The notes under the pieces: model-generated
Seen by the model: only the letters and a program-made list of their open reading frames with translations
Database searches by the model: none
Told to the model about the DNA's origin: nothing
Part shown: positions 17,931-45,741 of the stretch, piece by piece
Layout of the letters: every line of letters starts with the position of its first letter
How positions within the stretch are numbered: position 1 is the stretch's first letter
Source: Microgenomates group bacterium
Lineage (GTDB): Bacteria > Patescibacteriota > Microgenomatia > UBA10105 > UBA927
Direction of reading: 5' to 3'
Length of the DNA stretch: 64,000 bases
NCBI GenBank assembly: GCA_049287205.1
Contig: JBAQFJ010000001.1
Span: 575,041-639,040 of the forward strand
Position numbers and translations under genes: made by a program

Positions 17931-18502
17931 GGAGCTGTTTTAGAACCAACGTATGTATACTGCTCTTTAGTGTCTTGGAGGGCATTCAGTAGAGTATTTC
18001 TGATTTGAATAGATGTATCTAACATTACGCCAATGGATAAATCTGTTGCCACTGCTTTTTCAGGTATCCATTGAAATTCGTTGGGCAACCATTGCTTCAT
18101 ATACTCAATGGTCGATACATGCGTCTTCATCGCTTCAACTACAATTGTCTTCTGAACGCTCATATCTTTTCCCTCACGCATTCCTTTTTCAATAAGCGAG
18201 GTGATGTCAACAAGCGCGGCATCAGACCGGGTAATAGCGTCTGCCGCAAGCAAATACTGTTTATATTCAAACAATGTTTTTGCCTCAACCAAATATTTAT
18301 CTGAAAGGCTGAGGTGGTACTTTATTTGTGCAATCGTTCCCCAATTCCAGTAATTTTTTAGCGTATCCATCATTCGTGACACGCGATAGATTTTGTTCCC
18401 CGGCATAAAGGATGGGTATGGAAGAACGTATTCTGCATACACCTGAGGAACAAAATACATAAAGCTAACAAACAGCAACAAATACAAACTTATTTTTTTC
18501 AT
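17915..18502 (-). CDS. secreted hypothetical protein (signal peptide, alpha-helical)
   Basis: MKKISLYLLLFVSFMYFVPQVYA signal-like N-terminus; 195 aa; overlaps both neighbours (16 and 4 nt). Confidence 0.5.
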   Translation of the reverse strand: MKKISLYLLLFVSFMYFVPQVYAEYVLPYPSFMPGNKIYRVSRMMDTLKNYWNWGTIAQIKYHLSLSDKYLVEAKTLFEYKQYLLAADAITRSDAALVDITSLIEKGMREGKDMSVQKTIVVEAMKTHVSTIEYMKQWLPNEFQWIPEKAVATDLSIGVMLDTSIQIRNTLLNALQDTKEQYTYVGSKTAPWQKK

Positions 18503-29448: not shown

Positions 29449-31008
29449 TTAGGGAAGTGAATACCCGTATGCATTCATTTCATCAGAAATCTTTTTGGTT
29501 ATTCTTGGGGTAACTGTTTTTTGTATATACACACATGACGGTCTACCGGAATTTAAAAGCTGAATATAATTTTTGGCGTCAACACTAGATAACGCGAATG
29601 ACACAATATCTCCCGCCCGGCACGCACCCACATAAAAAGTTGGCGGATTGTTCTCAAACATTTCTTCCCGTGCAATCCGATACATTGAAAAAAATGGCAT
29701 GACAGATGTGTACCACGAATACTTGTATGCGGTCGGTACACCTGCAACAAAATAGACCGGGTCTTCCCACATCTCGACAAACATCGTATCACCGGGTTCT
29801 GAAAGCATTTTTATAATCTCCCCTTTTACAAAATAATTGCCGTACCCAGTTGTAAATTCTACTTGTGTATCAACGGTTTCTTTTATTAAAGATTGGGGAG
29901 AAAAAAATGTGAGTGCGGCAATCCATACAACGGCTATGCCAACTGTTGTTCTACACACGCTTTTTATTTTTTGTCCCTCCATATCTTTTATAAAAACTGC
30001 AATGGAAACGATAAATAATCCGTACCACGGGATCAAGTGAAACGCGTCATAATACATCACCCCCGCCGGTACGACTCGTATATTTGAAACGGCCAGTATG
30101 CCGAGTAACACTCCAACCAAACCATACCGTTTTTTCCACAGTAATTCATACACAACAAGACCGCAAAAAATAACGGATAAAACAAGTAATACATTTTGAA
30201 AAATAGTTCCAAACCCTTTTGCTATAACAAACACCGGATAAAAAACTATCTGCAAAAAGGTTTGTATATTCCACAGTTGCACGCCTACTTCCTGTTCTAC
30301 ATTTATCGTTATGACATTAAACACATATTCACGCGCGGGAAGAACGAGAATAGTCAGGACGTGAAACAACAGAAAAATACCTGCACTTATTCCAATGTAT
30401 TTCCTATGCGCTTTTTCTTTATATCCGATAACAAAAAGAATACCTAATACGATCAGTGCCCATGGCATAAAGGGTTCGCGCGTCCAAAAAATAAACCAAG
30501 AACAGACAGCCGCCAATAGGTATTCCCATGCATATATCCGTTTTTTTACTACTACCTGTCCAATCAGCATCATAAGATACATCATCGGATACACGATAAA
30601 CCCCTCGGCTAAGAACCTATCTCCAAACAGATAGAATTTTGTGCTTTCAAACACAACAAGAGATATAAACATAGGCAGTCCGAAACGAAAAATAAGAAAA
30701 GACCCGCATATGTTTGCAAACACGAGTGCGGCAATCCGGTGATACTTCACTAATTCAAACAGCGTAGTAGGATCTGTAGTATATTGAATTGCCGCGCTTA
30801 TATACGCCATGAATGGCTGATGATTAAAAAATATTTGACTGTACAGCTGTTTCCCCTGAAGAATGAAGTCCCCTGCACCGAAATTAAAACAATCATCAAA
30901 ACAACCAAATGCCCCAACGCGCTTCAGAAGAAAAAATGAAATACCAACAAAAATAATCTGATAAAAGAGTAGTAAAAAAATTCTACCAACAGGTATTTTT
31001 TCTCTCAT
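29449..31008 (-). CDS. polytopic membrane protein (unrecognised family; CFDDCFNFGAGDF motif)
   Basis: 519 aa. Many helices in the first 330 aa, then a soluble C-terminal domain. Convergent with the plus-strand YfhO gene across a 9-nt spacer. Confidence 0.45.
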   Translation of the reverse strand: MREKIPVGRIFLLLFYQIIFVGISFFLLKRVGAFGCFDDCFNFGAGDFILQGKQLYSQIFFNHQPFMAYISAAIQYTTDPTTLFELVKYHRIAALVFANICGSFLIFRFGLPMFISLVVFESTKFYLFGDRFLAEGFIVYPMMYLMMLIGQVVVKKRIYAWEYLLAAVCSWFIFWTREPFMPWALIVLGILFVIGYKEKAHRKYIGISAGIFLLFHVLTILVLPAREYVFNVITINVEQEVGVQLWNIQTFLQIVFYPVFVIAKGFGTIFQNVLLVLSVIFCGLVVYELLWKKRYGLVGVLLGILAVSNIRVVPAGVMYYDAFHLIPWYGLFIVSIAVFIKDMEGQKIKSVCRTTVGIAVVWIAALTFFSPQSLIKETVDTQVEFTTGYGNYFVKGEIIKMLSEPGDTMFVEMWEDPVYFVAGVPTAYKYSWYTSVMPFFSMYRIAREEMFENNPPTFYVGACRAGDIVSFALSSVDAKNYIQLLNSGRPSCVYIQKTVTPRITKKISDEMNAYGYSLP

Positions 31009-31064: not shown

Positions 31065-32810
31065 ATGAATTGGATGACAAAAAATACAGCCGTTCTCTTT
31101 CATCTTATCTGCATCCTCATGGTCGCGTTTACTTGTCGGTTTCTTTTCCTAGATACCATACCAACCGGTATCACAAATGATGAGTTAGATTACGTACTCA
31201 ATGCAAAATCCATCTGGAAAACAGGGAAAGACATGAGTCAACTTTGGGCACCTTACTTTTTAACACCTCCTACAGGAACATTCCCAATGGCAGAACTCCC
31301 ATCTGTTTTGATGGCTCCTTTTATCGGCCCGTTACCATTATCGTTATTTAACGCAAGATTCGGATACGCATTTTTTGGCTCATTTCTTTCCATACTTCTC
31401 TATTTTCTTGCCAACCGTCTGTTTCATTCAAAAAAAATCAGTTTTATTGTTGGTCTATGTATCGCCTTAAATCCTTGGGCGATATTTTTCAGCAGAACAG
31501 GATTAGATGCACCTATCGCTGTATTTTTTTATTATCTATTTTTCTTTTTTGCACTGTCAAAAAATTCATTCGTATATATTCTGTCGTTACTCTCATTTTC
31601 TATTGCATTTTTTTCCTATATCGGTACAAAGCTTATCGCTATACCAATCGCTCTACTGCCTCTGATTCTGCACGACAATAAAAGAAATCATCTACCAATG
31701 AAAGCGGGGATGCTTATCCTACTAGGCTTTGGATTAACCGTATTTTTTATATACAACGCACAACATGCATCAACAAAAACACGCATGAACGAACTATTTT
31801 TCCCAACGAGCACTATTGTTAGTTCCGACGTTGATAATGAAAGAAAGTTAAGTCTGCCCAGCCCCGTGACCCATCTTTTTGCAAACAAAGTCACTTCCTA
31901 CGTAAACATCTCGCTAACCAAATACCTCAATGCGTTTTCTCCAAATTTGTTGTTTTTAAACGGAGACACAAGATCCGCATTTTCTGTATGGACTCACGGA
32001 TATTTCTATATTATAGATATACTGTTTTTTCTATATGGCTTTGCGATCATGTTTCACACACATAAAAAACAACTTATATTTCTTCTTGGGATAATACTCT
32101 TAGCTCCAATACCAACAGTATTAAGTACCGTGGGAGTCAGCTATCCGATACGGTCATCATTGTTGTTTCCCTCACTTATACTCATCATCGGCTACGGCAT
32201 CAGCGCATTTACTGATACTATAAAAACTAAAAAAGTTTTCCTTCCAATTACTCTCCTTATCATATCGGTATACCTATTTTCCGCCGCTCATTTCCTGTTT
32301 ATCTATATATTCAGAAATCCAGTAGCCAATTCAGAAGGTTTTGATTTCAGCTCCCGTATTATTTCATCTTATCTTTTAAGGAGCAGCCGAAAAACTCCGG
32401 TAACGGTATTCACCGGTTCGCCAAAAACACTGTATAAACAATATATTTTTTATGCAAATACCTATGATAAAAACACAATGTATTCTTTAGCTAATTCTTC
32501 AAACGAAACTATTTTTTCAGTTCATGCGATAACGTTCAAAACATGTGCTCAATTTGATGAGGAAGATCTAAAAACTACATATATCGTGGAGCCGTCACTT
32601 GCTTGTCAGATTATACCGAAAAAAGATATAAAAATAGAAATTGCGCAACTCTCCGACGCCGGTACTATCTACAGAATATATAATGATCGACTCTGCAACC
32701 CATTACAGCGTCTTCCCTATCCAAGGCTCAATACTTTAAACGATTTGCATATTGAAAATCTGACTGACAACAACTTCTGTCGCCTCTATATAACAGGAGA
32801 AAATAAATAG
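31065..32810 (+). CDS. ArnT/PMT-like polytopic membrane glycosyltransferase
   Basis: FLDTIPTGITNDELDYVLNAKSIWKTGKDMSQ (DE + GKD motif); 581 aa; membrane N-terminal two thirds plus soluble C-terminal domain. Confidence 0.55.
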   Translation: MNWMTKNTAVLFHLICILMVAFTCRFLFLDTIPTGITNDELDYVLNAKSIWKTGKDMSQLWAPYFLTPPTGTFPMAELPSVLMAPFIGPLPLSLFNARFGYAFFGSFLSILLYFLANRLFHSKKISFIVGLCIALNPWAIFFSRTGLDAPIAVFFYYLFFFFALSKNSFVYILSLLSFSIAFFSYIGTKLIAIPIALLPLILHDNKRNHLPMKAGMLILLGFGLTVFFIYNAQHASTKTRMNELFFPTSTIVSSDVDNERKLSLPSPVTHLFANKVTSYVNISLTKYLNAFSPNLLFLNGDTRSAFSVWTHGYFYIIDILFFLYGFAIMFHTHKKQLIFLLGIILLAPIPTVLSTVGVSYPIRSSLLFPSLILIIGYGISAFTDTIKTKKVFLPITLLIISVYLFSAAHFLFIYIFRNPVANSEGFDFSSRIISSYLLRSSRKTPVTVFTGSPKTLYKQYIFYANTYDKNTMYSLANSSNETIFSVHAITFKTCAQFDEEDLKTTYIVEPSLACQIIPKKDIKIEIAQLSDAGTIYRIYNDRLCNPLQRLPYPRLNTLNDLHIENLTDNNFCRLYITGENK

Positions 32811-32819
32811 ACAAATTCT

Positions 32820-33728
32820 TTACAATATCCGATCTGAAACTTTCCACAGTTTCGATTGTTTTTGTCGTTTTGCAACAATCAGAGGGTATCGAAGCATTGC
32901 AAGCACATACCCTTGGATCAACATCAAATCTCCTCTGAAAAGCGCCTGTAGGAGCCGTATCGGCGTCCAAAATATATGAGAAGCAAGAATGGATGGTTCA
33001 CTAAGATTTTTCCAGATAAAAGTAAATTGGTTCCGAAAAGAAATCCTCTGTACATCGCGCGTGGTATATTCTTTTTTTATAACTCCCACTTCATGGTAAT
33101 GCCCGACGATACTTTTCGGTTCAAATACAATGTTCCATCCTGCTTTTCTTGCGCGATAAGAAAGATCAATGTCTTCCCAGTAAAACGGATTAAACAATGT
33201 ATCCATGCCGCCTAAGGTGTTCCACATAACCCGCCTAAATGCTCCGCTTCCACCGGAAACCCATGCAGTATCTGTCTTATCTACTTCGCCGCGCTCATGA
33301 ATATAATATCCTCGTCTCCATTTGGCAACACCTCTTCCACGAAGTATTGTTTTTTCATGCTCCCAACTTTTTTCCAGACATCCGACGGCAAAAACATTAA
33401 CATCCTCAAAATGAGTAAGCAGTGGCGCAAGATATCCTTTTTCCGGTTCCACATCAGTATTTAGCAGTATGACTATATCTCCTGTTGCACGCGCCACTCC
33501 GGAATTTACATTCCCTGCAAAACCCTGCCTTTTCTTATTGGCAACCACGATGACGTCAGGAAAATTCTTTTTCAAATACTCCACCGAACCGTCAGCGGAA
33601 ACGTCGTCGCTCACAATAATTTCCGCATTTGGTGTTGCTTCGATTGTTTTCTTCAGGTGTTTTTCCATCAGATACACACCGTTCCAATTGGGAATAACAA
33701 CAGAAACAGAAAAAATATTGTTTTTCAT
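32820..33728 (-). CDS. GT2 family glycosyltransferase (WbbL/rhamnosyltransferase-like layout)
   Basis: VSVVIPNWNGVYLMEKHL...IVSDDVSADGS...LNTDVEP motifs; 302 aa. Confidence 0.8.
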   Translation of the reverse strand: MKNNIFSVSVVIPNWNGVYLMEKHLKKTIEATPNAEIIVSDDVSADGSVEYLKKNFPDVIVVANKKRQGFAGNVNSGVARATGDIVILLNTDVEPEKGYLAPLLTHFEDVNVFAVGCLEKSWEHEKTILRGRGVAKWRRGYYIHERGEVDKTDTAWVSGGSGAFRRVMWNTLGGMDTLFNPFYWEDIDLSYRARKAGWNIVFEPKSIVGHYHEVGVIKKEYTTRDVQRISFRNQFTFIWKNLSEPSILASHIFWTPIRLLQALFRGDLMLIQGYVLAMLRYPLIVAKRQKQSKLWKVSDRIL

Positions 33729-33731
33729 AGG

Positions 33732-35996
33732 TTACTTATATTGTACTGCAACCACATGTGTTCCGTCAGGAATGACACATCCGAAGAACAGGTAATTGAC
33801 ACGCTGTGTCTCGACCCGCGTGCCGTCAACAAATACCTGCCAATGAGAGTCCATCATGTTTCCGATAACCAAAAATCTTGAATTTTTCGCTGATGAACGA
33901 AGCATCATGCTGTCGCCTTCATACGCTTCTATTTCCACTGTATCCTCTTTTGCAGATTCACCAACAATAAACGGTTCCCCCTCCAACACAACGCCACTCC
34001 CCGGAATGAATTCCTTTGAATACAGCCTATTCATCACACCTTCTTTCGATTTTTCAAAGAAAAACTGCTCTGCGAAATATACACGCGGGATATACTTTAC
34101 CACTGAGTATAGCTTAGTCGTTCCTTCTTCACTCAGGAGCCGAACTGCAGGAGATACGATCATATCCATAGAAAGAACGTATCGCACATTTAACAGTGAC
34201 AGTAACGGTGAGGTAATTGTTTTGGGTGTTATGATCCGATTAAAACCGAATGGCGGAGTGATGTTCGGTTCTCCTCGTTCCATTGCAGCAATATATTCTT
34301 CGTATCTACTGGTATACATCGGATCGTATCCTGCAACTGACTCAATATTGTAATAGCTAAGTACATTTGGAGGAACGAGTCTGTCATCTGTTGCAATGAC
34401 CCTAAATGGTTTTTTCATCTGAGTCAAACGCTCAATAATCTCTGTTTTCGGATAGAAATATGCTTGATCGGTAAATGGGGTAAATTTCCAACCAAAACGA
34501 ACAAGTTCAAACGACAAGAGCACAAACAATCCAAAACATAAAAACCCGCGCATTATTTTCCAAGATGATCGTATACTCATGATAAGTACTGAGATACCAA
34601 AAAGTACCGCATATACAACTGTAGGAAGAATAAGATTACGCTTCACAACACTCATATCAGCATCCGCAATAGGAAGAAATGAAGGATAATATACAAACAT
34701 CCATGTAACACCAAAAAATACGCCAACTGCAAGAACACCAAAAAGTAGTTTTTTCTTATTGTCTTTCAGAAGTTCTGACAATCCATATGCGGCAAGTATT
34801 GATAATGCAAAATCAACGATTCCCAAAAGCCTTGTCGGCTGTAACGACGAAAGAAACGGAATATGGAGCTTAAACGGAAGTCTTGCAACCCAGCCATCAA
34901 CCGAAAAAAATAGACACACAGCACTCACGAGTACCCAAAACGCGGTTGCTTTTGATATTCCAACTATTGCGAGTACAAGTCCGACAACACCAATATACCC
35001 TATCATTTCACCATAATTCCATGTCCCCCAATAATTTAATGTTGTTGGATTTCCGAAAAAATCAGGTGCAACAAATTGCAGCAGATGGCGAATCGGAATA
35101 AAAAATCCTTCCGCATTCCACGCACTGCCTGCTGACCTAGCGCTGGAAGTGAATACGGATAAAAACCGTATCCAAACCGGAGAGGTGAGGATAATGATAA
35201 TGAGTGGAACAACCACGTGCATACTGTACACTTTTGTCATTTTTATTCTTCTTCTGCTGATAACCGCATACGCTAAGAATAAAACACTTGTGTAAAAGAA
35301 CATCTGTAAGTGTCCTGCGAAAAAAGACGAAACACTTGCAAAAATAAATACCAATCTCCAAGGAATTTTTCTTTGTGACGCATGTAGCTTATCAAATGAA
35401 AGCAATATGAGCGGAAGCCAAAGAATCGTTGAGCCGATCGTTCCCCATGTCAGCCACGAAACAGAGAATCCGGAAAATGCGAAACATATAGATCCGACGA
35501 GACATGCAAGCGGTTCAAGTTGCTTGTGACGCAGAAATAAATACAAAAAAATTCCTCCTAACAGTGGTTGACTGATAATCAGTATGGACCAAGCGGTTAT
35601 GAACGGGAAAATAAAAAACAGAACATTTAACGGATACAATGCGCCTGACTGAATATTTCCAAGAAGCGGTGCGCCTGAAAAAGACGTTGCATCCCAAAGG
35701 GGCATCTTCTTTTGTTTGAAGGCATCAATGACCTGCTTTCTCCAAGGAATTTGCTGTCTGATTGGATCCGTAATCAGGAAATTTTTATACGGCACCCCAT
35801 TTTGAAACGTATGTGCATATGCATCCCGCCATGGATGATATAACCCGACAAGATCATCCGAAGGGATCGGTTGTTTCCCAAAAAAAATTGTTTTATAAAA
35901 AAAACCAAAAATAAGGAGTACTAACAAACTCACCGCGAACAGATCCTGGTGTCGTTTGACGAACGCTGATAGCCTGCTAAAAAATTTTACTTGCAT
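33732..35996 (-). CDS. long YfhO-like polytopic membrane glycosyltransferase (GT-C)
   Basis: 754 aa. MPLWDATSFSGAPLLGNIQSGALYPL N-terminal motif. C-terminal SHWQVFVDGTRVETQRVNYLFFGCVIPDGTHVVAVQY module. Confidence 0.65.
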   Translation of the reverse strand: MQVKFFSRLSAFVKRHQDLFAVSLLVLLIFGFFYKTIFFGKQPIPSDDLVGLYHPWRDAYAHTFQNGVPYKNFLITDPIRQQIPWRKQVIDAFKQKKMPLWDATSFSGAPLLGNIQSGALYPLNVLFFIFPFITAWSILIISQPLLGGIFLYLFLRHKQLEPLACLVGSICFAFSGFSVSWLTWGTIGSTILWLPLILLSFDKLHASQRKIPWRLVFIFASVSSFFAGHLQMFFYTSVLFLAYAVISRRRIKMTKVYSMHVVVPLIIIILTSPVWIRFLSVFTSSARSAGSAWNAEGFFIPIRHLLQFVAPDFFGNPTTLNYWGTWNYGEMIGYIGVVGLVLAIVGISKATAFWVLVSAVCLFFSVDGWVARLPFKLHIPFLSSLQPTRLLGIVDFALSILAAYGLSELLKDNKKKLLFGVLAVGVFFGVTWMFVYYPSFLPIADADMSVVKRNLILPTVVYAVLFGISVLIMSIRSSWKIMRGFLCFGLFVLLSFELVRFGWKFTPFTDQAYFYPKTEIIERLTQMKKPFRVIATDDRLVPPNVLSYYNIESVAGYDPMYTSRYEEYIAAMERGEPNITPPFGFNRIITPKTITSPLLSLLNVRYVLSMDMIVSPAVRLLSEEGTTKLYSVVKYIPRVYFAEQFFFEKSKEGVMNRLYSKEFIPGSGVVLEGEPFIVGESAKEDTVEIEAYEGDSMMLRSSAKNSRFLVIGNMMDSHWQVFVDGTRVETQRVNYLFFGCVIPDGTHVVAVQYK

Positions 35997-37054
35997 ATAG
36001 ACCGCAAAAGTTCGTCATATTGCTCATTAAATAATTTTTTTGAAAATTTCTTCGCAGTCTGTTGTGCTGCAATAATAATACTTTTTATGTCTTTGCCTTT
36101 CATGATCATCGAAGTCGCAACGAGTAATTCATCAACCGTGTTCCAAAGATATCCGTTTATCCCCTGTTTGACGATTTCCGGCTGTCCTCCCGCGTTATAG
36201 ACAATAGGGATACAACAGCCGCTCATTGCTTCAACCGTTGTCATACCAAAATGTTCCATACGCGTTGGGTCTGTTTCGCCGTAACCAGCCGCATGCCAAT
36301 ACATAGAGGAGACTTCGTATAATGATTGTAGTTTTTCATATGAGCAGTTCATCTCAAATTCAATCGCATATCCTTTTGCCATCTCTAGAAGCGAGTTGGC
36401 ATATTCCTCATCGGTTGCTAAACATCCTCCGGCAAGCACTAATTTCCAACCATTCGCTTGCTTCTTTTTTGTCATTTCGATAAATGCACGGATTAATACA
36501 TCCTGCTTTTTTGCACCATATAACGCATTAAACCTACCCACTGACAAAATAATTTTTTCTTTTTTTGCAGTTTTTAAAACTGTAACATCCACCGGCGGAT
36601 AAATAATAGTCACAGGAACTGATAATTTTTTATCTAGATTATGTTTTGTAAATTCAGAATTCACCACAATCGATCTGTAATGCGCTGCCTTCCATGGTGT
36701 CATTGCTATATGCGCGAAGGGTACTTGGAAATGAATAATATTTTGTCGCGCCATCGTCATTGGCACACTTCCGTCGCTTAAGAAAAAAATAAGATCATAT
36801 TTGGATGACTCAATAAGTTTTCTCACTAAAAATCTTGTACCAAAAATATTTGGCGTTGTTTTTACCTTAGAAAGATCAAGTCCAAACCTGTCCGTAGCCG
36901 ACCTGAGAATTGATGCGTCATCCCAAAATATCGAAACATCATGCATCGTTGACCAGTGCTCTGCAAGCGTAAGCACATACCGCTCGCCTCCACCTAACGA
37001 GTCGAAATACGGATTATATATGCCAATTTTTAGTTTTTTTGTTTTTTTGTCCAT
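35987..37054 (-). CDS. GT4 family glycosyltransferase
   Basis: MEHFGMTTVEAMSGCCIPIVYNAGGQPEIV (E-x7-E); 355 aa; sits between two YfhO-like genes with 10 and 25-nt overlaps. Confidence 0.8.
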   Translation of the reverse strand: MDKKTKKLKIGIYNPYFDSLGGGERYVLTLAEHWSTMHDVSIFWDDASILRSATDRFGLDLSKVKTTPNIFGTRFLVRKLIESSKYDLIFFLSDGSVPMTMARQNIIHFQVPFAHIAMTPWKAAHYRSIVVNSEFTKHNLDKKLSVPVTIIYPPVDVTVLKTAKKEKIILSVGRFNALYGAKKQDVLIRAFIEMTKKKQANGWKLVLAGGCLATDEEYANSLLEMAKGYAIEFEMNCSYEKLQSLYEVSSMYWHAAGYGETDPTRMEHFGMTTVEAMSGCCIPIVYNAGGQPEIVKQGINGYLWNTVDELLVATSMIMKGKDIKSIIIAAQQTAKKFSKKLFNEQYDELLRSICK

Positions 37055-39369
37055 ATTGCAATACCAAACAATGTAATGATGCCTAATCCTGATACAATCA
37101 TACCAATACGAAACCCGACGGGATAATATCTGTATTCTATTGTATGCATACCGGCAGGCACTGCAACAGCCCTGAAATCATAATCAGCTCGAAACACTGT
37201 AGTTTTCTCACCATCTATGGTTGCATTCCAACCTGCATCAAACACATCAGATAAAAACAGTAGTTTTGGCACATCGCTTGAAGTTTTAATTGTCACTACA
37301 TTTGGAGAATAGAACAAAATCTCCGCTTCTCCGTCACCTGTTTCCGGTTTGATGCTCGGCTCAGTCTCCAATAGTACTGTGTTTCGTAGATCAAAGTCAG
37401 GAGCAAACAACCGATCAATTATCTTCTGATCGTTCGATATCACTTCGAAACTTGATGCTAAAAATGCCCGAGGGAAACTTTTTTCATATACGTATACTTC
37501 ATATTGTCCGTCTTCATAGGTTTTCTTCATATCACCAGTTTCGTATTGCCACACAGGAAATGCCCAGATATTTCTTCCATCACTCACTCGATGCATAATA
37601 TAGCGAACCCCAAGAAGTTGCAGTACCTGATCTCTATACCTCCCGTGTTTATCAAACATCACAACCGATCGTCCCCCTGGAGCAACAATACCATTTGACG
37701 AGGCATTGATAAATTCCGCAAATCGACCCTGATACATTGCATCATATCCTTCTATAAGAGAAATACTAGATGTCATACCCGTTTCCCCACCGATATTTCC
37801 AAACATCCGATACGACCCAATTTCACGCTTTACGTGTTTCAAGACATTCATTTCCGGATAGACAAATCCTTTTTCATCAAACGGCATCCATTTGGAAGCA
37901 TATCGATACATATCAAACATCGTGAGCAGAAGTAATGCAATAATTGGCAAGCTATACCATTTCATTTTTTTTATAAACCCTGATGCCATAAGAACAAGCG
38001 ATGCACCAGCGAGTGCCGTAGGGAGGATGAGATTTCTTTTGGCAATGATATTTCCATCATTTGTAAATGGCTGTATCACCAGTATAAGAAACCACACAAT
38101 AACAATGACAAGTACAAGAGAACTGGCAAACAAAAGATACCTCGTTAGTTTTTTTGTCTTCCACGCGTCAATGAGGTCATCCATTCCAAAACCCGCAAGT
38201 GCTGACAGAGATAAACTAAACAGAATAATAATACGTGATGCCGCACTTGTTGAAACGACCGGCAATTTCAACGCAAAAAGCAAATCATTGAGTGGCGTTG
38301 GATACGCCAAAAAGATAGAAAAAATAGCGAGCACGCTAAAAAACCGAACGTATCCTTTCATTTTTCTCGTAATTGCGTATAGAGCAAAAATGAGTGGGAT
38401 GACTCCAACGTAGCTCGCCCATTCAGCATAATGCCCAAACCAATCATTTCGAGTCACTGGATTTCCATAAAAATCCGGTGAAAACACGGTCACAATATAC
38501 TTCCACGGGATGACCTCTCCTTTGATAAAACTGGAATTCCGAGTGGAAGACATATACGCCTGAAGAGTCAACAAAATTTGCGGCATTGCTACCAATACAC
38601 CTAAGATAGAAACGATACCAAGCAGTAGTCCTTGTTTAAACTTTCTTGTTGAAAGCGTTACAAATAATATGTACGCTGCTACTGCCCCTGTGACATACAA
38701 AGAAATCTGAAAATGACCGGACAGAAAAGAACATGCAATACTTCCCGCGAGGATGACCAAATACCACCACTTATTTTTCTTCATGTATGCAGTTACTGCC
38801 CACAATGCATATGGCAGACACAATGCGGCATACCCAAGTGTTCCATATGCCATCCATGTGGTCATAAACCCGCAAAACATAAACGAAATAGACGAGAGTG
38901 TTGCGGCATTTTTAGACCTGCCGAGAGACCTGATAAACACATACATGCCGATTGCCGCCAAAAGAGGTTGCAACAATACAAATACACTCCATGCATCGAT
39001 AAATGACAGCAGAAAAAATAATACATTAAACGGTGAAAACACAGCAGACTGATAATTTGCCGCATGCGTGGTGCCAGCAAAACTGTACGGATTCCAAAGC
39101 GGAATCTGGCCGAGCTTCAAACTTTCTATGGTAATTTTTTTCCATGGATATATCTGGGATATGACATCGGGCATTGCGTTGTTTTTGACAGGCATACCGT
39201 ATGCCGTGTTCCATGGGGGGAAAAATGTGACAAGATATGTAGACGGAAACGGAACAAGACCTTTTCCAAAATACGGGAAACAAAACGCGACCCACAATAC
39301 AATAATTGCTAAAAGTGGAAGAAAAGAAAACCGTTTTTGTTTCATGATTTGTTCTGTTGTTTTTCCCAC
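37030..39369 (-). CDS. long YfhO-like polytopic membrane glycosyltransferase (GT-C)
   Basis: 779 aa. IPLWNPYSFAGTTHAANYQSAVFSPF N-terminal motif. C-terminal SDVFDAGWNATIDGEKTTVFRADYDFRAVAVPAGMHTIEYRYYPV module. The probable start is the internal ATG at 39345, giving a 4-nt overlap. Confidence 0.65.
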   Translation of the reverse strand: MGKTTEQIMKQKRFSFLPLLAIIVLWVAFCFPYFGKGLVPFPSTYLVTFFPPWNTAYGMPVKNNAMPDVISQIYPWKKITIESLKLGQIPLWNPYSFAGTTHAANYQSAVFSPFNVLFFLLSFIDAWSVFVLLQPLLAAIGMYVFIRSLGRSKNAATLSSISFMFCGFMTTWMAYGTLGYAALCLPYALWAVTAYMKKNKWWYLVILAGSIACSFLSGHFQISLYVTGAVAAYILFVTLSTRKFKQGLLLGIVSILGVLVAMPQILLTLQAYMSSTRNSSFIKGEVIPWKYIVTVFSPDFYGNPVTRNDWFGHYAEWASYVGVIPLIFALYAITRKMKGYVRFFSVLAIFSIFLAYPTPLNDLLFALKLPVVSTSAASRIIILFSLSLSALAGFGMDDLIDAWKTKKLTRYLLFASSLVLVIVIVWFLILVIQPFTNDGNIIAKRNLILPTALAGASLVLMASGFIKKMKWYSLPIIALLLLTMFDMYRYASKWMPFDEKGFVYPEMNVLKHVKREIGSYRMFGNIGGETGMTSSISLIEGYDAMYQGRFAEFINASSNGIVAPGGRSVVMFDKHGRYRDQVLQLLGVRYIMHRVSDGRNIWAFPVWQYETGDMKKTYEDGQYEVYVYEKSFPRAFLASSFEVISNDQKIIDRLFAPDFDLRNTVLLETEPSIKPETGDGEAEILFYSPNVVTIKTSSDVPKLLFLSDVFDAGWNATIDGEKTTVFRADYDFRAVAVPAGMHTIEYRYYPVGFRIGMIVSGLGIITLFGIAIWTKKQKN

Positions 39370-40103
39370 AACTTTGCGTACGTGATAAACATACTAAATG
39401 CCTGATATATACTCTCAATCCATCCAACTGTTCCGGCCCTCCACCCCTGTTGATGCCAAAATGAATCGTTAAATGCCGTCAACATAACGCGAATAAACCG
39501 CCACCAGACCACGATTGGATGTCCTGAGCTAAGTCTCAAATTCGCCTCAATTTCTGACCATTCATTTGTTTTTTCCACCATTTCACTTAGTGTCCGATGC
39601 GTCTGATGTACAAGTGAAGCGGAGAGTGTTTCAACAACACCATCAATCTCTGCATGCTCATGAAGTGAGCCCTGCCATGACAGAAGCGCACTCTTTTTTA
39701 TGAGGCGAATCATTTTATCTTTTGTCGGCCATCTATGCCCCAGATAATAATTTTCACGCGTTATAAAATATGCCGCGGCAGATCCACTTGTCATCATTTC
39801 AATAATTTCTTTTTGAAGTTCTGGCGTGACGAGTTCATCTGCATCTATATATAACAACCAATCACCAGTCGCGTTTTTGGCTCCAGTTTCCCGTAATGCG
39901 GAAAAATCCTTCCCTGATATTTTTATCACCTTAGCATGAAGCAATGTCGCAATACGTGCTGTCTCATCTATTGACCCATTATCAACAACAATAATTTCAC
40001 TGGCAAACCGTACATGCTCAATACATGTTGCAATTCGCTTCTCCTCATTTTTTGCAATAATGATGACGCTACACGTGTTTTGTTGGTTCATATTGTTTTC
40101 CAA
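39342..40103 (-). CDS. GT2 glycosyltransferase (CsbB/GtrB-like position immediately upstream of YfhO-like gene)
   Basis: CSVIIIAKNEEKRIATCIEHV...VVDNGSIDET...IDADELV; 253 aa. Confidence 0.8.
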   Translation of the reverse strand: MENNMNQQNTCSVIIIAKNEEKRIATCIEHVRFASEIIVVDNGSIDETARIATLLHAKVIKISGKDFSALRETGAKNATGDWLLYIDADELVTPELQKEIIEMMTSGSAAAYFITRENYYLGHRWPTKDKMIRLIKKSALLSWQGSLHEHAEIDGVVETLSASLVHQTHRTLSEMVEKTNEWSEIEANLRLSSGHPIVVWWRFIRVMLTAFNDSFWHQQGWRAGTVGWIESIYQAFSMFITYAKLWEKQQNKS

Positions 40104-40998
40104 AACGGCGAAAAAACCAATCTTTTACCGCCTTTTTCCGTATGTCTGACGCAGTACCCATAAATCGTATTGCTTCCCTGATAAGCGCTATTTTTGTTCT
40201 GATAGGCGCGTACCGTATTCCAAGAAGCAGACGGTTCCTGGTGAAATAATATTCGTGGAGTGGATTACCAGGTCTGCCTGAAGACCCCGCATTCACATGC
40301 CACAAAACAGATGTGGGCGTGTACATTGTTTTCCACCCCGCCTTCTGCATACGCACATTCCAATCCAGATCTTCCAAATACAAAAAATATGCATCATCAA
40401 GCAGGCCTACCTGACGAACAACTTCTGAACGAATAACAAATGAACAGCCGGTGATAAATGGCGTCTGTTCTATGTGATTGTATTGACCGTGGTCAACTTC
40501 ATCAACACCTCTATGTGACGCATACATATTTTTCCAGTCAACCAGTCCACCTGCGTACCAAAATACTTTTCCCCGTTCACTGTCTGTATATCGGTCATGA
40601 TGATATTCATGATCAGGTGCAAAATAAATTTTCGATCCGCTCGCACCTACAGTTTTATCTTCAAAAGCTTCCGTGAATGCTAAAACATTTTTATCAACTA
40701 TGGTATCGTTGTTGAGAAGCCACACAAGATCCGCTCCTTGTTCTAATGCAAATTTCATTCCAACATTATTTCCACCAGTGAATCCCAAATTAGTTTTGTT
40801 TTCAATAAGCGTCACTTCTGGGAATTGCTTTCTAATCACAGCGACGGAATTATTTGTCGAGCCGTTGTCGACAACGATTGTCAAAAGTTTATTGCCTCCG
40901 CGGACAACACGTTCCAACGAGTTTAGACAGGCAACAGTATCATCAACTCCATTCCAGTTAACAATGATAACTGCGATTGTATATTTTTTTGTACTCAT
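40069..40998 (-). CDS. GT2 family glycosyltransferase
   Basis: IAVIIVNWNGVDDTVACLNSL...VVDNGSTNNS...LNNDTIV; 309 aa. Confidence 0.85.
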   Translation of the reverse strand: MSTKKYTIAVIIVNWNGVDDTVACLNSLERVVRGGNKLLTIVVDNGSTNNSVAVIRKQFPEVTLIENKTNLGFTGGNNVGMKFALEQGADLVWLLNNDTIVDKNVLAFTEAFEDKTVGASGSKIYFAPDHEYHHDRYTDSERGKVFWYAGGLVDWKNMYASHRGVDEVDHGQYNHIEQTPFITGCSFVIRSEVVRQVGLLDDAYFLYLEDLDWNVRMQKAGWKTMYTPTSVLWHVNAGSSGRPGNPLHEYYFTRNRLLLGIRYAPIRTKIALIREAIRFMGTASDIRKKAVKDWFFRRFGKQYEPTKHV

Positions 40999-41921
40999 AG
41001 CCCCAAGCTTTTCCGTTTAATTTTCTTGATAATGTTGGCAACAATATTTTTTGAATCTTTCATCGATGCGGTCAGCGTCCAATAGGAAATTTCCTTCCCC
41101 CGCTCTTTTAATTCATCTGACACCGCCGAAAGCTGAATGTCACGTTCTTCAAATTTATCCATTTCCCACTTTTTTGCAAATGTTGCAAATGAATAGAATG
41201 CCTGAAACATCGATAAAACCAGTCCGTGCAGTCCATCTTTGTATCCGCCTTCCGCAAAATATATTTTTATAAAATCTGATATTGGAAACCTGAGCGCATC
41301 AAACCAACTTAACTGATAATTACTTTCTGTGAGCGTTATTGCTTCACTTGATGATGCCCTGTCAATTTTTGCGAGGTACTGAGAAACTGATTCGTAATTA
41401 TAATGCGTATACGGCTCATCCAACTCCCCAACTTTTCCAACTACTTCAATATATTCATGAATATGTACACAAGGAAACTTACCTTGCGGGCGTCTGAACA
41501 GTCGTATCTGCTTATCCGGCCACCAAAGCCCGTGTTGTATCCAACGCCCGAAAGAAAAATTTTTACGTTTTATCCAAAAACCGTTTTCTTCCGGATTTCG
41601 GGCAATCAACTTTTTGATTTCTGTTGCTAAGGCAACCGGAAGTACCTCATCCGCATCTAAATTAAGAATCCAATCGCCTGTTGCCTTCGAAAAACCATAA
41701 TTTTTATTGATGTTGAGCATCAGTTGGTTTTTCTGAACAAAAACTTTTTTTGTATATTTTTTTGCAATGTTTGCTGTGGCGTCAGTTGACGAATTATCAA
41801 CAACTATGATTTCATCTGCAATTCCTGTTACGGATTCAAGACACCGAGATAATGTTTTTTCTTCGTTATATGCAGACACTACGACACTCAACGTGTATTT
41901 CATATTATTTCTCCTTTGCAA
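40995..41921 (-). CDS. GT2 family glycosyltransferase
   Basis: LSVVVSAYNEEKTLSRCLESV...VVDNSSTDAT...LDADEVL; 308 aa. Confidence 0.85.
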   Translation of the reverse strand: MQRRNNMKYTLSVVVSAYNEEKTLSRCLESVTGIADEIIVVDNSSTDATANIAKKYTKKVFVQKNQLMLNINKNYGFSKATGDWILNLDADEVLPVALATEIKKLIARNPEENGFWIKRKNFSFGRWIQHGLWWPDKQIRLFRRPQGKFPCVHIHEYIEVVGKVGELDEPYTHYNYESVSQYLAKIDRASSSEAITLTESNYQLSWFDALRFPISDFIKIYFAEGGYKDGLHGLVLSMFQAFYSFATFAKKWEMDKFEERDIQLSAVSDELKERGKEISYWTLTASMKDSKNIVANIIKKIKRKSLGL

Positions 41922-43350
41922 TACGGATAACTTCCATAATTTTTCGTTTTTCTGTAAGCCAGACGATAGTCATATAGAGAACAACACCAACGCCGCCGAT
42001 AATAATTAAACGCATCCATGTATACGGCGCTGACCACACAACAGCCGCATACCACCCTGATTGTACAAGGGCCGCAAAAAATGGCCACTTCACACTACGC
42101 GTAAACGAAAAATCCGCAATCTTTTTTCCAAGCCAAACAACCAGTCCAAGGGTGGAAGTTAACAAGACTAAGCTCATCGATACACCGTTAAAGCCGAAGA
42201 AACGGATCATCGTTATTGTCAAAATCCATGTGCTTATTGTCCAAAATACCATTAAATATAGTGTTGTTTTAATTTTACCGACCGCATTTAACGCATTAGT
42301 GAGCGGTGTGGAAAATCCCGCAAGGATTGATGCGATAACAAATAATGCAAATGAAAACAATGCAGGTTCCCATTTACTGTATTTTGGAATCAACTGGACG
42401 GCAGGCCCGATAAAGAAGAGCAACCCGACTGATATCGGAAACATTGTTGTTGCCAGTCCAAACAAAATTTTTTCAATCGCTTTCCCCAGATGCTCTTTGG
42501 AATCCTGAAGACGTGAGAACGCAGGAAATGTCACCCGAATAACACTATCCATGATAAGCCGTAACGGCACCTCTGCCCATTTCTTTGCCCAACCGATATA
42601 TCCTACTTCAGTAAATGTCAAAATCTTTCCTAAGAAAACGGTCATTAAATCATCTTTGAGAAGCGACAAAAACGAATTAAATTGAAACGGAACACCAAAT
42701 TTTAACAACCGCTTCGCAATAGGTTTAGATATCCCAAGTTGTATCTTCCACGGAGAAACAATATACATAATACCAAGTCCAATAATTGCTCTTGTAAGCA
42801 CCGCATACGTAAAACTGGTTATCCCAAATCCACGCCAAGCCAGTATAACTGCAACCGCATAAAATCCTACAGTCTCGGCTATCTGGGGAATGATGAGCCG
42901 GTTAAAGTTTAATTTTCTCTCCAGTAGGATTGACGGAATTGTCTTTAATGAAGAAAAGAAAAATGAAACAACAAGCGCCCGAAGGAGCAGGATGCCTGAC
43001 GCATCAAGTCCATAAAACCTGGCAATATACGGAGAGGCAAAAAAAACAATAATGCTGATTGGCAACACTAACATCTGTTGAATAGTGAATGTTGTAGATA
43101 AATCCTCTTCAGTTAACATTTCTTTCTTTTGGATGAGTGCGGCGGCCAATCCTACATCAGAAAAATAGGAAAGAAAAGAAATAATCGCGGAAACCACATA
43201 ATAAATACCGAATGTCGCGGGATTTAAAAATATGGTCAATAAAAACGTCGAAGCAAATGCGATAATTTGCAGCAAAAATGTCCGTGAAGTAAGCGCCAGA
43301 ATACCCGTTAATGACTTCTTTTTGATGGTTGCGATATCAATTTCTTCCAT
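41905..43350 (-). CDS. Wzx-like oligosaccharide flippase / polysaccharide biosynthesis protein (MOP superfamily)
   Basis: 481 aa, about 12-14 helices. N-terminal KKKSLTGILALTSRTFLLQIIAFASTFLLTIFLNPATFGIYYVVSAII typical of Wzx/PST-family exporters. Confidence 0.65.
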   Translation of the reverse strand: MEEIDIATIKKKSLTGILALTSRTFLLQIIAFASTFLLTIFLNPATFGIYYVVSAIISFLSYFSDVGLAAALIQKKEMLTEEDLSTTFTIQQMLVLPISIIVFFASPYIARFYGLDASGILLLRALVVSFFFSSLKTIPSILLERKLNFNRLIIPQIAETVGFYAVAVILAWRGFGITSFTYAVLTRAIIGLGIMYIVSPWKIQLGISKPIAKRLLKFGVPFQFNSFLSLLKDDLMTVFLGKILTFTEVGYIGWAKKWAEVPLRLIMDSVIRVTFPAFSRLQDSKEHLGKAIEKILFGLATTMFPISVGLLFFIGPAVQLIPKYSKWEPALFSFALFVIASILAGFSTPLTNALNAVGKIKTTLYLMVFWTISTWILTITMIRFFGFNGVSMSLVLLTSTLGLVVWLGKKIADFSFTRSVKWPFFAALVQSGWYAAVVWSAPYTWMRLIIIGGVGVVLYMTIVWLTEKRKIMEVIRIAKEK

Positions 43351-44101
43351 ATCGTTTCGGCAATTTTTTCCATGGTCTTGTGGTAAATAGCCGTTTCAGT
43401 CCGTCAAGATCACCTGTTGCAGTCTTAATGACACGCACTGTCGAACCGGGATTATCTATCCATGTGACCGGCTCTTCATAGATGCGGTATCCTAATTTTT
43501 CGGCTAAGATAAGCAGTTCAGAATCAAAAAACCACGCGTTGTCAACAACATGCGGCAACAACATTTTTGCGGATTCATCTGTAATTGCCTTAAACCCGCA
43601 TTGCGCGTCTCCGAATTTTACAAAAAATAACATCTTGATGATCGCGATATACATTTTTGAGGTAAACGTTCTGAGCACACTTCGCCCATACACCCGACTT
43701 GCACGCGCGTTCCTTGTACCGATTGCGATGTCATATCCGCGTTGAAGCGACCTGACCAATGGCGGAAGATGTTTCAAATCGGTTGACAGATCCACATCCA
43801 TATAACAATGCACATCAGCATTCGTCTCCATCCATGCTTTTTTCACCGCTCTTCCTCTTCCTTTTTGCTCTAATCGAAGTGTATGGACAAACACGTGATT
43901 TTTTGCAAGCATTTTTGATATGACTGGCGTTTTATCCGTTGAAGCATTATCTGCAATGGTAATAGTCCATGTAAAATCAGGAAGATACGAATGCAAAAAC
44001 GTAATCAACGTTTCTGTATGCGCCTCCAATTCTTCTTCCTCGTTGTATACAGGGATAACAATATCAAGCCTTGGTTTTTTTTCCATAAATATATATCGCA
44101 C
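43337..44101 (-). CDS. GT2 glycosyltransferase, DPM1/GtrB-like polyprenol-phosphate hexose synthase
   Basis: LDIVIPVYNEEEELEAHTET...TIADNASTDKT...YMDVDLSTD and CGFKA motifs characteristic of dolichyl/undecaprenyl-phosphate glycosyl synthases. The likely start is ATG at 44086 (MEKKPRLD). Confidence 0.75.
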   Translation of the reverse strand: MRYIFMEKKPRLDIVIPVYNEEEELEAHTETLITFLHSYLPDFTWTITIADNASTDKTPVISKMLAKNHVFVHTLRLEQKGRGRAVKKAWMETNADVHCYMDVDLSTDLKHLPPLVRSLQRGYDIAIGTRNARASRVYGRSVLRTFTSKMYIAIIKMLFFVKFGDAQCGFKAITDESAKMLLPHVVDNAWFFDSELLILAEKLGYRIYEEPVTWIDNPGSTVRVIKTATGDLDGLKRLFTTRPWKKLPKRYGRN

Positions 44102-45740
44102 CGATGACGAACACCCCCAGTATACTCATCCAGTTCCCGAGCACCCGCACCGGTGTATCGCGAAAGCGCAATTCTATTATACTAATTCCGCTCTGTATAG
44201 TCACAGAAGGAAGACCCTGTTCAATGCTGGGATCAATTTCTCTTCCGTTGACCGTCATTTTCCATCCGGGAAACCATGCTTTATGTATCGTAATCTTTTG
44301 TTCTGTTTCACTCATAATTTCCACAACAAATGACGCACTTGCTTCAGTGAGACGCATAACAGAAAATGCACTCTCTCCTGAAACAGTGACTTTCGTCACC
44401 TCACTTGCCGTCTTTGGTCTCAGAATGGCAAGTGGAAGATATTCATCCGAAATTTTTGATTTTATAAACCGTAATTCTTCAAAACTCTCAAACGCGCTAC
44501 TCTCCCGAACGTATTGGTATTGAGGTACAAATATTTTTGCATTCACTAACATTGTTGCTGCAATAATACCTACCGACAACATGATTCGAATACCGGGAAT
44601 ACGGAATACGGAAATACTGTATGCTCCACCGATTGCAATTCCCATCATGCCAAAGGTTAACAGTCTCCACGGATATTGAATAAACGATGTATATGGAATC
44701 ATACGCCAGAAAGAAGCGGATATTGAAAGCATCAAAAGAATGCACAGAAGTACGCTACCAATTGTTGCTTTCATATACGCATTTTTTTCGTGTACTTTTT
44801 TAGAATTCCTCATATATGCCCACATACCAACGGCAATCCCAAAAAGCAGTATATGCAATTTCCCAAATTTAAATGACATACCGTCAACACACCCTGGAGC
44901 TGAACCCGCAAATCCCCATGGCGCATTCCATAATTGCGAGGCGCAGACAAAATGATCAAAAAATGTGGTACTCGCCGAGCTAACCATCGCGGCAACTGAC
45001 GTCGCTGACATTTCAACAAACGCGGGTAACCAAAAAAATGCGGAAAGGGAAAGTCCCAGAGCCATAACAACAACTGGAACCACGACGTCTTGTCTTGTTA
45101 ATTTTTGTTTTATCAATTTCATTACCCAAAAAATGCATATTCCCAATAGCAGCATCGCACAGGTCAAAAAACCTAGGATAGTATGCGACGTAATGACACC
45201 TGCAAGGGCAAGTCCGGCAATTGCTATCTGTGAATGAAATCTTTTTTCTTTCAACGCGCGGAGCAGTCCGGAAAGGATAAGCGGCACAAATGCGATCGCC
45301 CAATATTCCCCAACTGACCCGCGAATATATATTTGCACAGCGTGATAGGGCGCAAAAAGAAATAGCGTAGCGCCCGCAACTGCAGCTGCAGCGCCAAACA
45401 CAGGAGACAGCAATAAAAATAATGTTATAGGGGCAAGGACTGCCCCAATGCCAAACATGACCTTTGTTGCAACAACACTGTCCATTCCAACCGCATATAA
45501 AGAGCCGCCAATATAATACGGCAATGGTCCATAAAAATTAAAAATCGGATATCCTAAACCATATCCGAGATCCGAAACCATCCGCACAGGAAATTGTCCG
45601 TCACGAAGCGCACGCCCCATTACTACAACTCGGGCAACTTGCGTATCATCATGCATTGGAAAATACCCATCTGAAAGAAGCGGCTTGATGGCAAAAAATG
45701 ATACAACAATAATACAGATAAAACCGAACGCTTTTTTCAT
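44064..45740 (-). CDS. short YfhO-like polytopic membrane protein (GT-C)
   Basis: From ATG at 45740 (MKKAFGFICIIV...). PMHDDTQVARVVVMGRALRDGQFPVRMVSDLGYGLGYPIFNFYGP motif; C-terminal WFPGWKMTVNGREIDP module. The ORF-track N-terminal extension to 45797 would overlap the upstream paralogue. Confidence 0.6.
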   Translation of the reverse strand: MKKAFGFICIIVVSFFAIKPLLSDGYFPMHDDTQVARVVVMGRALRDGQFPVRMVSDLGYGLGYPIFNFYGPLPYYIGGSLYAVGMDSVVATKVMFGIGAVLAPITLFLLLSPVFGAAAAVAGATLFLFAPYHAVQIYIRGSVGEYWAIAFVPLILSGLLRALKEKRFHSQIAIAGLALAGVITSHTILGFLTCAMLLLGICIFWVMKLIKQKLTRQDVVVPVVVMALGLSLSAFFWLPAFVEMSATSVAAMVSSASTTFFDHFVCASQLWNAPWGFAGSAPGCVDGMSFKFGKLHILLFGIAVGMWAYMRNSKKVHEKNAYMKATIGSVLLCILLMLSISASFWRMIPYTSFIQYPWRLLTFGMMGIAIGGAYSISVFRIPGIRIMLSVGIIAATMLVNAKIFVPQYQYVRESSAFESFEELRFIKSKISDEYLPLAILRPKTASEVTKVTVSGESAFSVMRLTEASASFVVEIMSETEQKITIHKAWFPGWKMTVNGREIDPSIEQGLPSVTIQSGISIIELRFRDTPVRVLGNWMSILGVFVIGAIYIYGKKTKA

Positions 45741-45741
45741 A

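Follow-up and report, generated by a model that had tools for sequence, protein, structure and literature searches.

A conserved operon with two YfhO-family glycosyltransferase genes in Microgenomates bacteria and a candidate synthase for their sugar donor

Characterised glycosyltransferases (GTs) of the YfhO family use monosaccharides linked to undecaprenyl phosphate (C55-P), which are supplied by a GT2 enzyme of the GtrB/CsbB type, and transfer them outside the cell to teichoic acids or to Ser/Thr-rich regions of proteins (PMC5836110, PMC8035078, PMC12041528). GT2 enzymes of the CsbB/GtlA type are held in the membrane by a pair of C-terminal transmembrane (TM) helices (PMC5836110). The GacI/GacK/GacL system consists of a TM-less GT2, a Wzx-type flippase and a GT-C enzyme (PMC8035078), and in the Pgf operon two YfhO paralogues are served by one GT2 (PMC12041528). 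The present analysis concerns five genes, in the order GT2, YfhO, GT4, YfhO and GT2, within a 64,000-nucleotide (nt) stretch of a Microgenomates group bacterium (contig JBAQFJ010000001.1, positions 575,041 to 639,040), referred to below as the window; genes are designated by their left-hand coordinate in it (Table 1). A previous sequence-only reading had interpreted the five genes within a Firmicute frame, as duplicated CsbB/YfhO-like modules in which each YfhO protein receives its donor sugar from the GT2 encoded next to it.

All five open reading frames (ORFs) were found on the minus strand as that reading had placed them, and they are the distal stretch of an operon of 10-12 genes conserved in Microgenomates (Gottesman-, Woese-, Levy- and Roizmanbacteria). 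The co-directional string of overlapping or abutting genes that ends with these five comprises, in order, rmlABCD, a UDP-glucose dehydrogenase, a short-chain dehydrogenase/reductase (SDR), the DPMS-type GT2_52356, a PMT_2 protein, GT2_50046, a GT87-like protein, a second PMT_2 protein, two PTPS-related GT-C proteins, GT2_43337, Wzx_41905, three GT2s, YfhO, GT4, YfhO and a last GT2. Conservation was assessed in 80 species-level Microgenomates loci obtained from an alignment of YfhO_37030 orthologues, with ORFs named by best BLAST match to window proteins and with counts at each position limited to loci whose contig extends to it. Given the neighbour counts in these 80 species genomes at positions -6 to +3 from YfhO_37030 (Table 1), the arrangement is not a product of chance. 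The same gene order was noted on three metagenomic contigs at 55-87% identity. Many contigs among loci L006-L084, titled "uncultured Gammaproteobacteria bacterium", carry the same operon at 45-75% identity; their titles, which look like placeholder taxonomy, the operon being shared with contigs named Gottesman-, Woese- and Levybacteria, were disregarded. The Firmicute frame does not directly suit this locus, the host being a Microgenomates bacterium of the candidate phyla radiation (CPR/Patescibacteria) and the close homologues of YfhO_37030 all being from Microgenomates/Patescibacteria.

The tight coupling of the five genes was evident from their junctions, where overlap of stop and start codons indicates co-translation. 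Overlaps read from the sequence were 23 nt between GT2_40069 and GT2_39342, 4 nt (ATGA) between GT2_39342 and YfhO_37030, 25 nt between YfhO_37030 and GT4_35987 and 10 nt between GT4_35987 and YfhO_33732; overlaps of 4-25 nt had been proposed throughout, which applies to these four junctions but not to that of YfhO_33732 with GT2_32820, where a 3-nt gap was found. The ORF of YfhO_37030 is open to a GTG at 39369 (779 residues) and that of GT2_39342 to 40103, and their probable starts are ATG 39345, 8 codons downstream, and ATG 40091 (249 residues), because orthologue lengths and the sequence itself agree on these positions.

Both long genes encode GT-C proteins of the YfhO family, as had been suggested, with PF09586 scores above the gathering cut-off of 28.5 bits, at least 9 hydrophobic helices and a large outside region toward the C terminus. 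The topology of YfhO_37030 predicted from hydropathy, i.e., TM1, an outside loop, a multi-helix core (at least 9 TM helices to approximately residue 490), a hydrophilic extracytoplasmic domain of approximately 290 residues and a last TM helix at 755-773, matches the architecture of Bacillus subtilis YfhO (PMC5836110). YfhO_33732 has the same core of at least 9 helices and a hydrophilic C-terminal region of approximately 250 residues but no closing helix; this anchor, which is present in YfhO_37030 and in a third window paralogue, YfhO_27037, is missing from YfhO_33732 and its orthologues (734-754 residues), whose extracytoplasmic domain would thus end in a free C terminus. Except for that absent helix, the 8-13 TM helices and large extracytoplasmic region before the last helix that characterise the family were found in these proteins. 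The Asp that follows TM1, in the motif NNAMPD(V/I)I..IYPWK, was invariant in 31/31 orthologues and 3/3 window paralogues (D60 in the 771-residue form of YfhO_37030) and is, as expected for GT-C enzymes, the predicted catalytic residue. YfhO_37030 and YfhO_33732 were 28.5% identical in within-window BLAST comparisons, and each was 29-30% identical to YfhO_27037; the two are old paralogues. Orthologues of YfhO_37030, 50-90% identical to it, were all from Gottesman-, Woese- or other Microgenomates/Patescibacteria bins, and they are named "YfhO family protein" by NCBI, so that family membership as such is already known. Weak C-terminal matches of YfhO_37030 to PgfM2 and PgfM1 were its only NCBIfam matches, and no solved structure was found for it by PDB sequence search, even at E<=1. 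An extracytoplasmic glycosylation step would be the natural reading of this pair. YfhO_27037 itself lies on the opposite strand, amid genes for 9-10-TM proteins (29449 and 31065).

The GT2 enzymes adjacent to the two YfhO genes had been taken for C55-P-sugar synthases of the CsbB/GtrB type. They were classified by four routes, namely NCBIfam matches, sequence and profile searches of the PDB, AlphaFold2 (AF2) models compared by Foldseek, and all-against-all BLAST within the window, and neither grouped with CsbB or GtrB by sequence, profile or fold. Thus, NCBIfam returned generic GT2 matches only (arsenosugar/MftF-like, SunS and EpsD) for GT2_39342 and GT2_32820, with alignments to ArnC, PpgS and AglJ limited to the N-terminal 100 residues or so, and just the N-terminal nucleotide-binding half of either protein is shared with DPMS, ArnC, PpgS and GtrB. 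Against PDB profiles, the GT2_39342 family matched GmaR (E 8e-26) and SunS (E 1.5e-17), and its match to GtrB (E 2.4e-3) covered the N-terminal ~110 positions only. The best match of the GT2_32820 family was PcManGT (6yv7, E 9e-14), with further matches to chondroitin synthase and ppGalNAc-Ts; those to ArnC (E ~2e-5) and GtrB (E 5e-4) extended over the N-terminal ~105 positions. AF2 models were built from 36-sequence alignments (pLDDT 91.8 for GT2_39342 and 90.9 for GT2_32820). The structures closest to the former were the S-glycosyltransferases SunS and ThuS, followed by TarS, with ArnC at rank 35, and the top 50 Foldseek matches of the latter were all ppGalNAc-T catalytic domains (TMq 0.6-0.75). 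Both proteins are classed by these comparisons as probable Leloir-type GT-A enzymes and not as lipid-phosphate sugar synthases. Of the two outcomes that the sequence-only reading had named as incompatible with it, the one found was NDP-sugar-dependent, non-lipid-phosphate transfer and not processive synthesis. A processive role for GT2_32820, orthologues of which in Microgenomates are 63-89% identical, was rejected on the grounds that the protein has no TM bundle, conserves RNQFIFIW instead of QxxRW and gives very weak synthase scores (PgaC/IcaA, 49.6 bits against a cut-off of 422; BcsA, E ~7e-3).

Hydropathy revealed zero TM segments in GT2_39342 and one weak hydrophobic stretch (score 1.64) in GT2_32820, and the two C-terminal TM helices of the CsbB/GtlA type were absent from both. 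The C-terminal helices of GT2_32820, one of which is moderately hydrophobic (residues 268-286), may allow membrane association. Missing helices were at the same time dropped as proof against a lipid-phosphate GT, since GacI and class-A GT2s of the window (see below) are also without them; the classification is based on family and fold. By within-window BLAST, the 13 GT2s fell into three groups, i.e., class A (9186, 11284, 43337, 50046 and 52356), class B1 (39342, 40995, 18499 and, in part, 2664) and class B2 (32820, 40069 and 1591), and no BLASTP match between GT2_39342 and GT2_32820 was obtained at E<=1e-3. The description of the genes as duplicated modules thus holds for the two YfhO paralogues but not for the flanking GT2s, which belong to different subfamilies, so that two parallel pairs of GT2 and YfhO are not present.

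The family that the sequence-only reading had expected beside the YfhO genes was instead represented by the class-A enzymes. The top NCBIfam matches of these five proteins were PgfS, ArnC, dolichyl-P-hexose transferase, PpgS or AglJ, they align nearly full-length to DPMS, ArnC, PpgS and GtrB, and three of them (43337, 50046 and 9186) are without TM helices by hydropathy, as in GacI. GT2_43337, five genes upstream of YfhO_37030, is the leading candidate for the task of CsbB/GacI, to feed the YfhO enzymes, judging from its top NCBIfam matches (PgfS, ArnC, dolichyl-P hexose transferase and PpgS) and from the PDB, where its seven strongest matches were to DPMS (1e-13), ArnC and GtrB. With GT2_43337 assigned as the donor enzyme, the adjacent GT2s become putative co-pathway enzymes instead of synthases of the YfhO donors. 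Comparable PDB matches were obtained for GT2_50046 (DPMS, 1e-18; ArnC; GtrB, 9e-14), and residues 16-386 of GT2_52356 aligned to residues 22-372 of 374 in Pyrococcus DPMS (5mlz); the latter gene thus encodes a full-length homologue of archaeal-type dolichol/polyprenol-phosphate mannose synthase, an unusual form for a bacterium.

No stand-alone GtrA/GtcA protein (PF04138), the flippase type previously proposed, was found in the 64-kb window, where this domain occurs only in fused form in GT2_52356. The sole dedicated flippase candidate within the conserved operon is Wzx_41905, for which NCBIfam gave O-glycosylation Wzx, WzxC-like and TuaB matches, all under their cut-offs. Both Wzx genes of the window lie beside class-A GT2 genes (11284-Wzx_9974-9186, all on the minus strand, and 43337-Wzx_41905), an arrangement that supports their functional pairing. 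The three-component idea consequently fails for the parts that had been named and stands for other parts of the same conserved operon, the GtrB/DPMS-like GT2_43337 and Wzx_41905.

Taken together, the operon contains two YfhO proteins with the predicted active-site loop facing outward, five TM-less Leloir GTs encoded by genes interleaved with the YfhO genes (GT2_40995, GT2_40069, GT2_39342, GT2_32820 and GT4_35987), Wzx_41905 and, just upstream of it, the class-A GT2_43337. GT4_35987, between the YfhO genes, gave only generic GT4 matches in NCBIfam, all far under cut-offs. With a rough probability of 0.55, the operon builds or decorates a surface glycan by multi-component transmembrane glycosylation, the protein classes and synteny being those observed above and the donor, the flipping and the acceptor those that they would suggest. 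In this mechanism, the class-A GT2 would load undecaprenyl or another polyprenyl phosphate with a monosaccharide, as GT2_50046 and GT2_52356 may do likewise; Wzx would carry the lipid-P-sugar to the outer leaflet, as proposed for GacK in Streptococcus pyogenes; and each YfhO paralogue would move the lipid-P-linked sugar onto an extracytoplasmic acceptor. On the cytoplasmic side, the five Leloir GTs would work on a lipid-linked oligosaccharide, which the same Wzx would export, and the acceptor would be either this exported glycan or a protein. The teichoic-acid-like acceptor proposed in the sequence-only reading received no support, as no LtaS, TagF, TarL or LCP domain was found among all ORFs of at least 150 residues in the window.

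Several observations weigh against this mechanism. An initiating phosphoglycosyl transferase (PF00953 or PF02397), an LCP ligase and a recognisable Wzy are all absent from the window, so that the branch that would assemble an undecaprenyl diphosphate (Und-PP)-linked oligosaccharide is incomplete there. There is also no GacJ-like small membrane partner beside GT2_43337, and with adjoining or overlapping genes all the way from 47295 to 33732, a small ORF of that kind has no room. The Wzx protein could carry the oligosaccharide only, in which case the lipid-P-sugar would be flipped by another flippase, and because matches of the GT2s to named families are far below equivalog cut-offs, specific sugars are not assignable.

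Among the alternatives, the one that survives best attributes a different donor to the YfhO proteins, namely an Und-PP-oligosaccharide built by the Leloir GTs and flipped by Wzx, which one or both YfhO proteins would polymerise or transfer whole to a protein, lipid or glycan acceptor. Other members of the GT-C class (PglB, AglB and STT3, for instance) take diphosphate-linked oligosaccharide donors, and a YfhO protein of this kind would fill the role of a Wzy, ligase or oligosaccharyltransferase, none of which was recognised in the window (Wzy, WaaL and LCP domains); moreover, the closest neighbours kept with the YfhO genes encode Leloir GTs and Wzx and not a GtrB-type GT2. This alternative leaves the conserved class-A GT2 beside Wzx unexplained, and the missing polymerase or ligase could instead be one of the polytopic proteins 45742, 44064, 29449 or 11961. 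It is considered unlikely, as the characterised YfhO-family enzymes all use a C55-P-monosaccharide (PMC5836110, PMC8035078, PMC12041528).

The next alternative, quite unlikely as an account of the operon, is protein O-glycosylation of the Pgf kind, in which the YfhO pair would modify secreted or membrane proteins, such as pilins and surface proteins, in disordered regions rich in Ser/Thr. Two YfhO genes in one operon do resemble PgfM1/PgfM2, in keeping with the weak matches of YfhO_37030 to both and with PgfS as top NCBIfam match of the class-A GT2s, but all these matches are far below family cut-offs; similarly, the nearest solved relatives of GT2_39342 and GT2_32820 are protein or peptide glycosyltransferases, but resemblance of the GT-A kind to SunS or ppGalNAc-T is widespread in bacterial GT2s. 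A possible acceptor with a Thr/Pro-rich linker is encoded in the window (61982), whereas there is no acceptor gene inside the operon, and Wzx together with five Leloir GTs points to an oligo- or polysaccharide. This alternative bears on the acceptor alone and does not conflict with transmembrane glycosylation fed by GT2_43337. The linker protein (274 residues, no Pfam match) has a hydrophobic segment at its N terminus, a TM anchor at its C terminus and the linker PTVTPTVTPTPAKGPTNTPAVSTVLITTPTP, and its being an O-glycosylation substrate is plausible from these features.

The original proposal, that GT2_39342 feeds YfhO_37030 and GT2_32820 feeds YfhO_33732 in two parallel modules decorating a teichoic-acid-like polymer, is very improbable, for although both GT2 genes adjoin YfhO genes with translational coupling, keep that adjacency in most Microgenomates genomes and encode DXD-type motifs, and although GT2_32820 has its one moderately hydrophobic C-terminal helix, neither GT2 groups with GtrB, CsbB, DPMS or ArnC as five other window GT2s do, the two C-terminal TM helices are absent, the GT2s are not mutual paralogues and a GtrA flippase, LtaS and TagF were not found in the window of this CPR host.

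Table 1. Features of the window. Positions are counted from YfhO_37030 and followed by the number of Microgenomates loci with that neighbour.
Feature	Coordinates	Strand	Assignment or evidence	Position, loci
52356, DPMS-type synthase, GT2 with GtrA/DPMS TM domain	52356-53528	-	Pyrococcus DPMS 5mlz, E 1.3e-39	
50808, PMT_2 GT-C	50808-52349	-		
50046, class-A GT2	50046-50804	-		
48868, GT87/MptA-like GT-C	48868-50046	-		
47310, PMT_2 GT-C	47310-48833	-		
45742, GT-C-like polytopic protein, paralogue of PTPS_related 44064	45742-47295	-	operon member	
44064, PTPS_related GT-C-like polytopic protein	44064-45797	-	operon member	-6 (PTPS-related GT-C), 64/67
43337, GT2, class A, short, TM-less, polyprenyl-phosphate-sugar-synthase-like	43337..44101	-	NCBIfam and PDB matches	-5 (class-A GT2), 64/67
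41905, Wzx/MOP-family flippase, 481 residues, at least 11 TM helices	41905..43350	-	PF13440, E 1.5e-54	-4, 66/69
40995, GT2, class B1, probable cytoplasmic Leloir GT, paralogue of 39342 (32% identity)	40995..41921	-	BLAST	-3, 67/70
40069, GT2, class B2, probable cytoplasmic Leloir GT, paralogue of 32820	40069..40998	-	weak rhamnosyltransferase-/GlfT1-like matches	-2, 69/71
39342, GT2, class B1, 249 residues, soluble	39342..40091	-	PF00535, ~78 bits; relatives GmaR, SunS, ThuS	-1, 73/77
37030, YfhO-family GT-C, paralogue 1, 771 residues	37030..39345	-	PF09586, 80.2 bits	
35987, GT4, GT-B fold, cytoplasmic, NDP-sugar-dependent	35987..37054	-	PF00534, E 6e-20; PF13439; no TM helices	+1, 73/76
33732, YfhO-family GT-C, paralogue 2, 754 residues	33732..35996	-	PF09586, 63.4 bits, E 1.9e-17	+2, 69/73
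32820, GT2, class B2	32820..33728	-	PF00535 (~78 bits)/PF13641; motifs DD.STD, NTD, WEDID	+3, 53/64; one gene beyond in 11 further loci
27037, third YfhO paralogue, 800 residues	27037-29439	+	PF09586, 114.6 bits, E 6e-33	
31065, polytopic protein	31065-32810			
29449, polytopic protein	29449-31008	-	9-10 TM helices	
11961, polytopic protein	11961-13202	-	9-10 TM helices	
11284, class-A GT2	11284-12201			
9974, second Wzx	9974-11233	-	flanked on both sides by class-A GT2s	
9186, class-A GT2	9186-9977			
17915, small secreted protein	17915-18502	-	DUF5667	
61982, Thr/Pro-rich linker protein	61982-62806	-		

The operon lies within a glycosylation island at window positions 1591-58970, i.e., ~57 kb or ~5-6% of the 1.02-Mb genome. 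The island encodes ~19 GT-C-like polytopic proteins (PMT_2, GT87/MptA-like, YfhO and PTPS-related) and 2 Wzx flippases, in addition to 13 GT2s, 3 GT4s, a methyltransferase, rmlABCD, UDP-glucose dehydrogenase and an SDR. Five of its polytopic proteins (11961, 29449, 15667, 19254 and 31065) had no Pfam match at E<=1; three of these (15667, 19254 and 31065) were assigned to GT-C because BLAST ties them to Pfam-positive paralogues. The other two, 11961 and 29449, have no paralogue in the window; a Wzy-like polymerase or ligase is a candidate role for them. One gene of the island, flanked by GT-C and GT2 genes, encodes the small secreted DUF5667 protein (17915).

The CPR/Patescibacteria are episymbionts of ultrasmall size, for the most part uncultured, and their surface chemistry presumably mediates attachment to the host; that a reduced genome devotes several percent of its DNA to a conserved, GT-C-rich glycan operon implies an important product. 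A broader and distinctly speculative possibility, of low probability, is that the island, with the YfhO operon as its conserved core, uses lipid-linked monosaccharides to build a complex heteroglycan of the envelope, for the most part outside the membrane, in the manner of mycobacterial arabinogalactan/lipoarabinomannan, with the YfhO pair, invariably set among genes for Leloir GTs and Wzx, possibly serving as polymerase, ligase or oligosaccharyltransferase for an Und-PP-oligosaccharide once it has been flipped, activities that to our knowledge are not known for the YfhO family. If an outside-built heteroglycan or such an action of YfhO were true, it would amount to a CPR-specific pathway for a cell-surface polymer. 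In the literature searched, no paper was found that links YfhO or GT-C glycosylation to Patescibacteria, CPR or Microgenomates; the novelty lies in the architecture of the operon, conserved in CPR, and in its GT-C-rich setting, the member families (YfhO, GT2, GT4 and Wzx) being already known. The known range of the YfhO family thereby grows by a phylum-level lineage and by an operon context linked to Wzx, a conserved 10-12-gene unit is defined, and the GT2 most likely to feed the YfhO enzymes, and with it the choice of gene pairs for co-expression, is corrected. The observation behind the sequence-only reading is sound and its pairing of GT2 and YfhO genes is wrong; as corrected, the picture offers a lead into CPR surface glycobiology that is useful, not revolutionary.

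Compared with CsbB-GtcA-YfhO glycosylation of lipoteichoic and wall teichoic acids in B. subtilis, Staphylococcus aureus and Listeria monocytogenes, the GT-Cs are of the same Pfam family (PF09586), but here a CPR bacterium is host to the system, neither adjacent GT2 is of CsbB/GtrB type, that class being represented instead by GT2_43337, no stand-alone GtrA/GtcA or teichoic-acid genes were found in the window, and two YfhO paralogues are embedded in a 10-12-gene Wzx pathway. The resemblance to Pgf of Streptococcus mutans (PgfS-PgfM1-PgfE-PgfM2) and to GtrB/PgtC2 of S. pyogenes and Streptococcus pneumoniae, in having two YfhO GT-Cs and a single GtrB-like GT2, is one of architecture only, with sequence identity very low and scores short of Pgf equivalog level (PgfM2, 25.6 bits against a cut-off of 1500; PgfS, 44.7-73.2 bits against 500); in contrast with Pgf, this operon has no adhesin or acceptor genes but has Wzx and several Leloir GTs in addition. 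The mycobacterial assembly system (Ppm1 and DPA synthases with PimE, MptA/B, Emb and Aft) does not include YfhO and is without sequence-level orthology to the island past family membership, but the island likewise pools many GT-C enzymes of several families (GT87/MptA-like and PMT_2 among them) with several polyprenyl-P-sugar synthases. With GacI-GacJ-GacK-GacL, which adds the GlcNAc side chain of the group A carbohydrate in S. pyogenes, and the related decoration of enterococcal EPA, taken here as one type, the differences are that no GacJ-like partner is present, that the GT-Cs are YfhO and PTPS-related instead of PMT_2 (GacL), that the rhamnan ABC-transporter machinery is absent and that five Leloir GTs stand between flippase and GT-Cs. 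Shared with that type is a TM-less GT2 of the polyprenyl-P-sugar-synthase class beside a Wzx-type flippase, with GT-Cs downstream in the same operon, and it is this layout of GT2_43337 and Wzx_41905 that is conserved in 64/67 and 66/69 Microgenomates loci, respectively.

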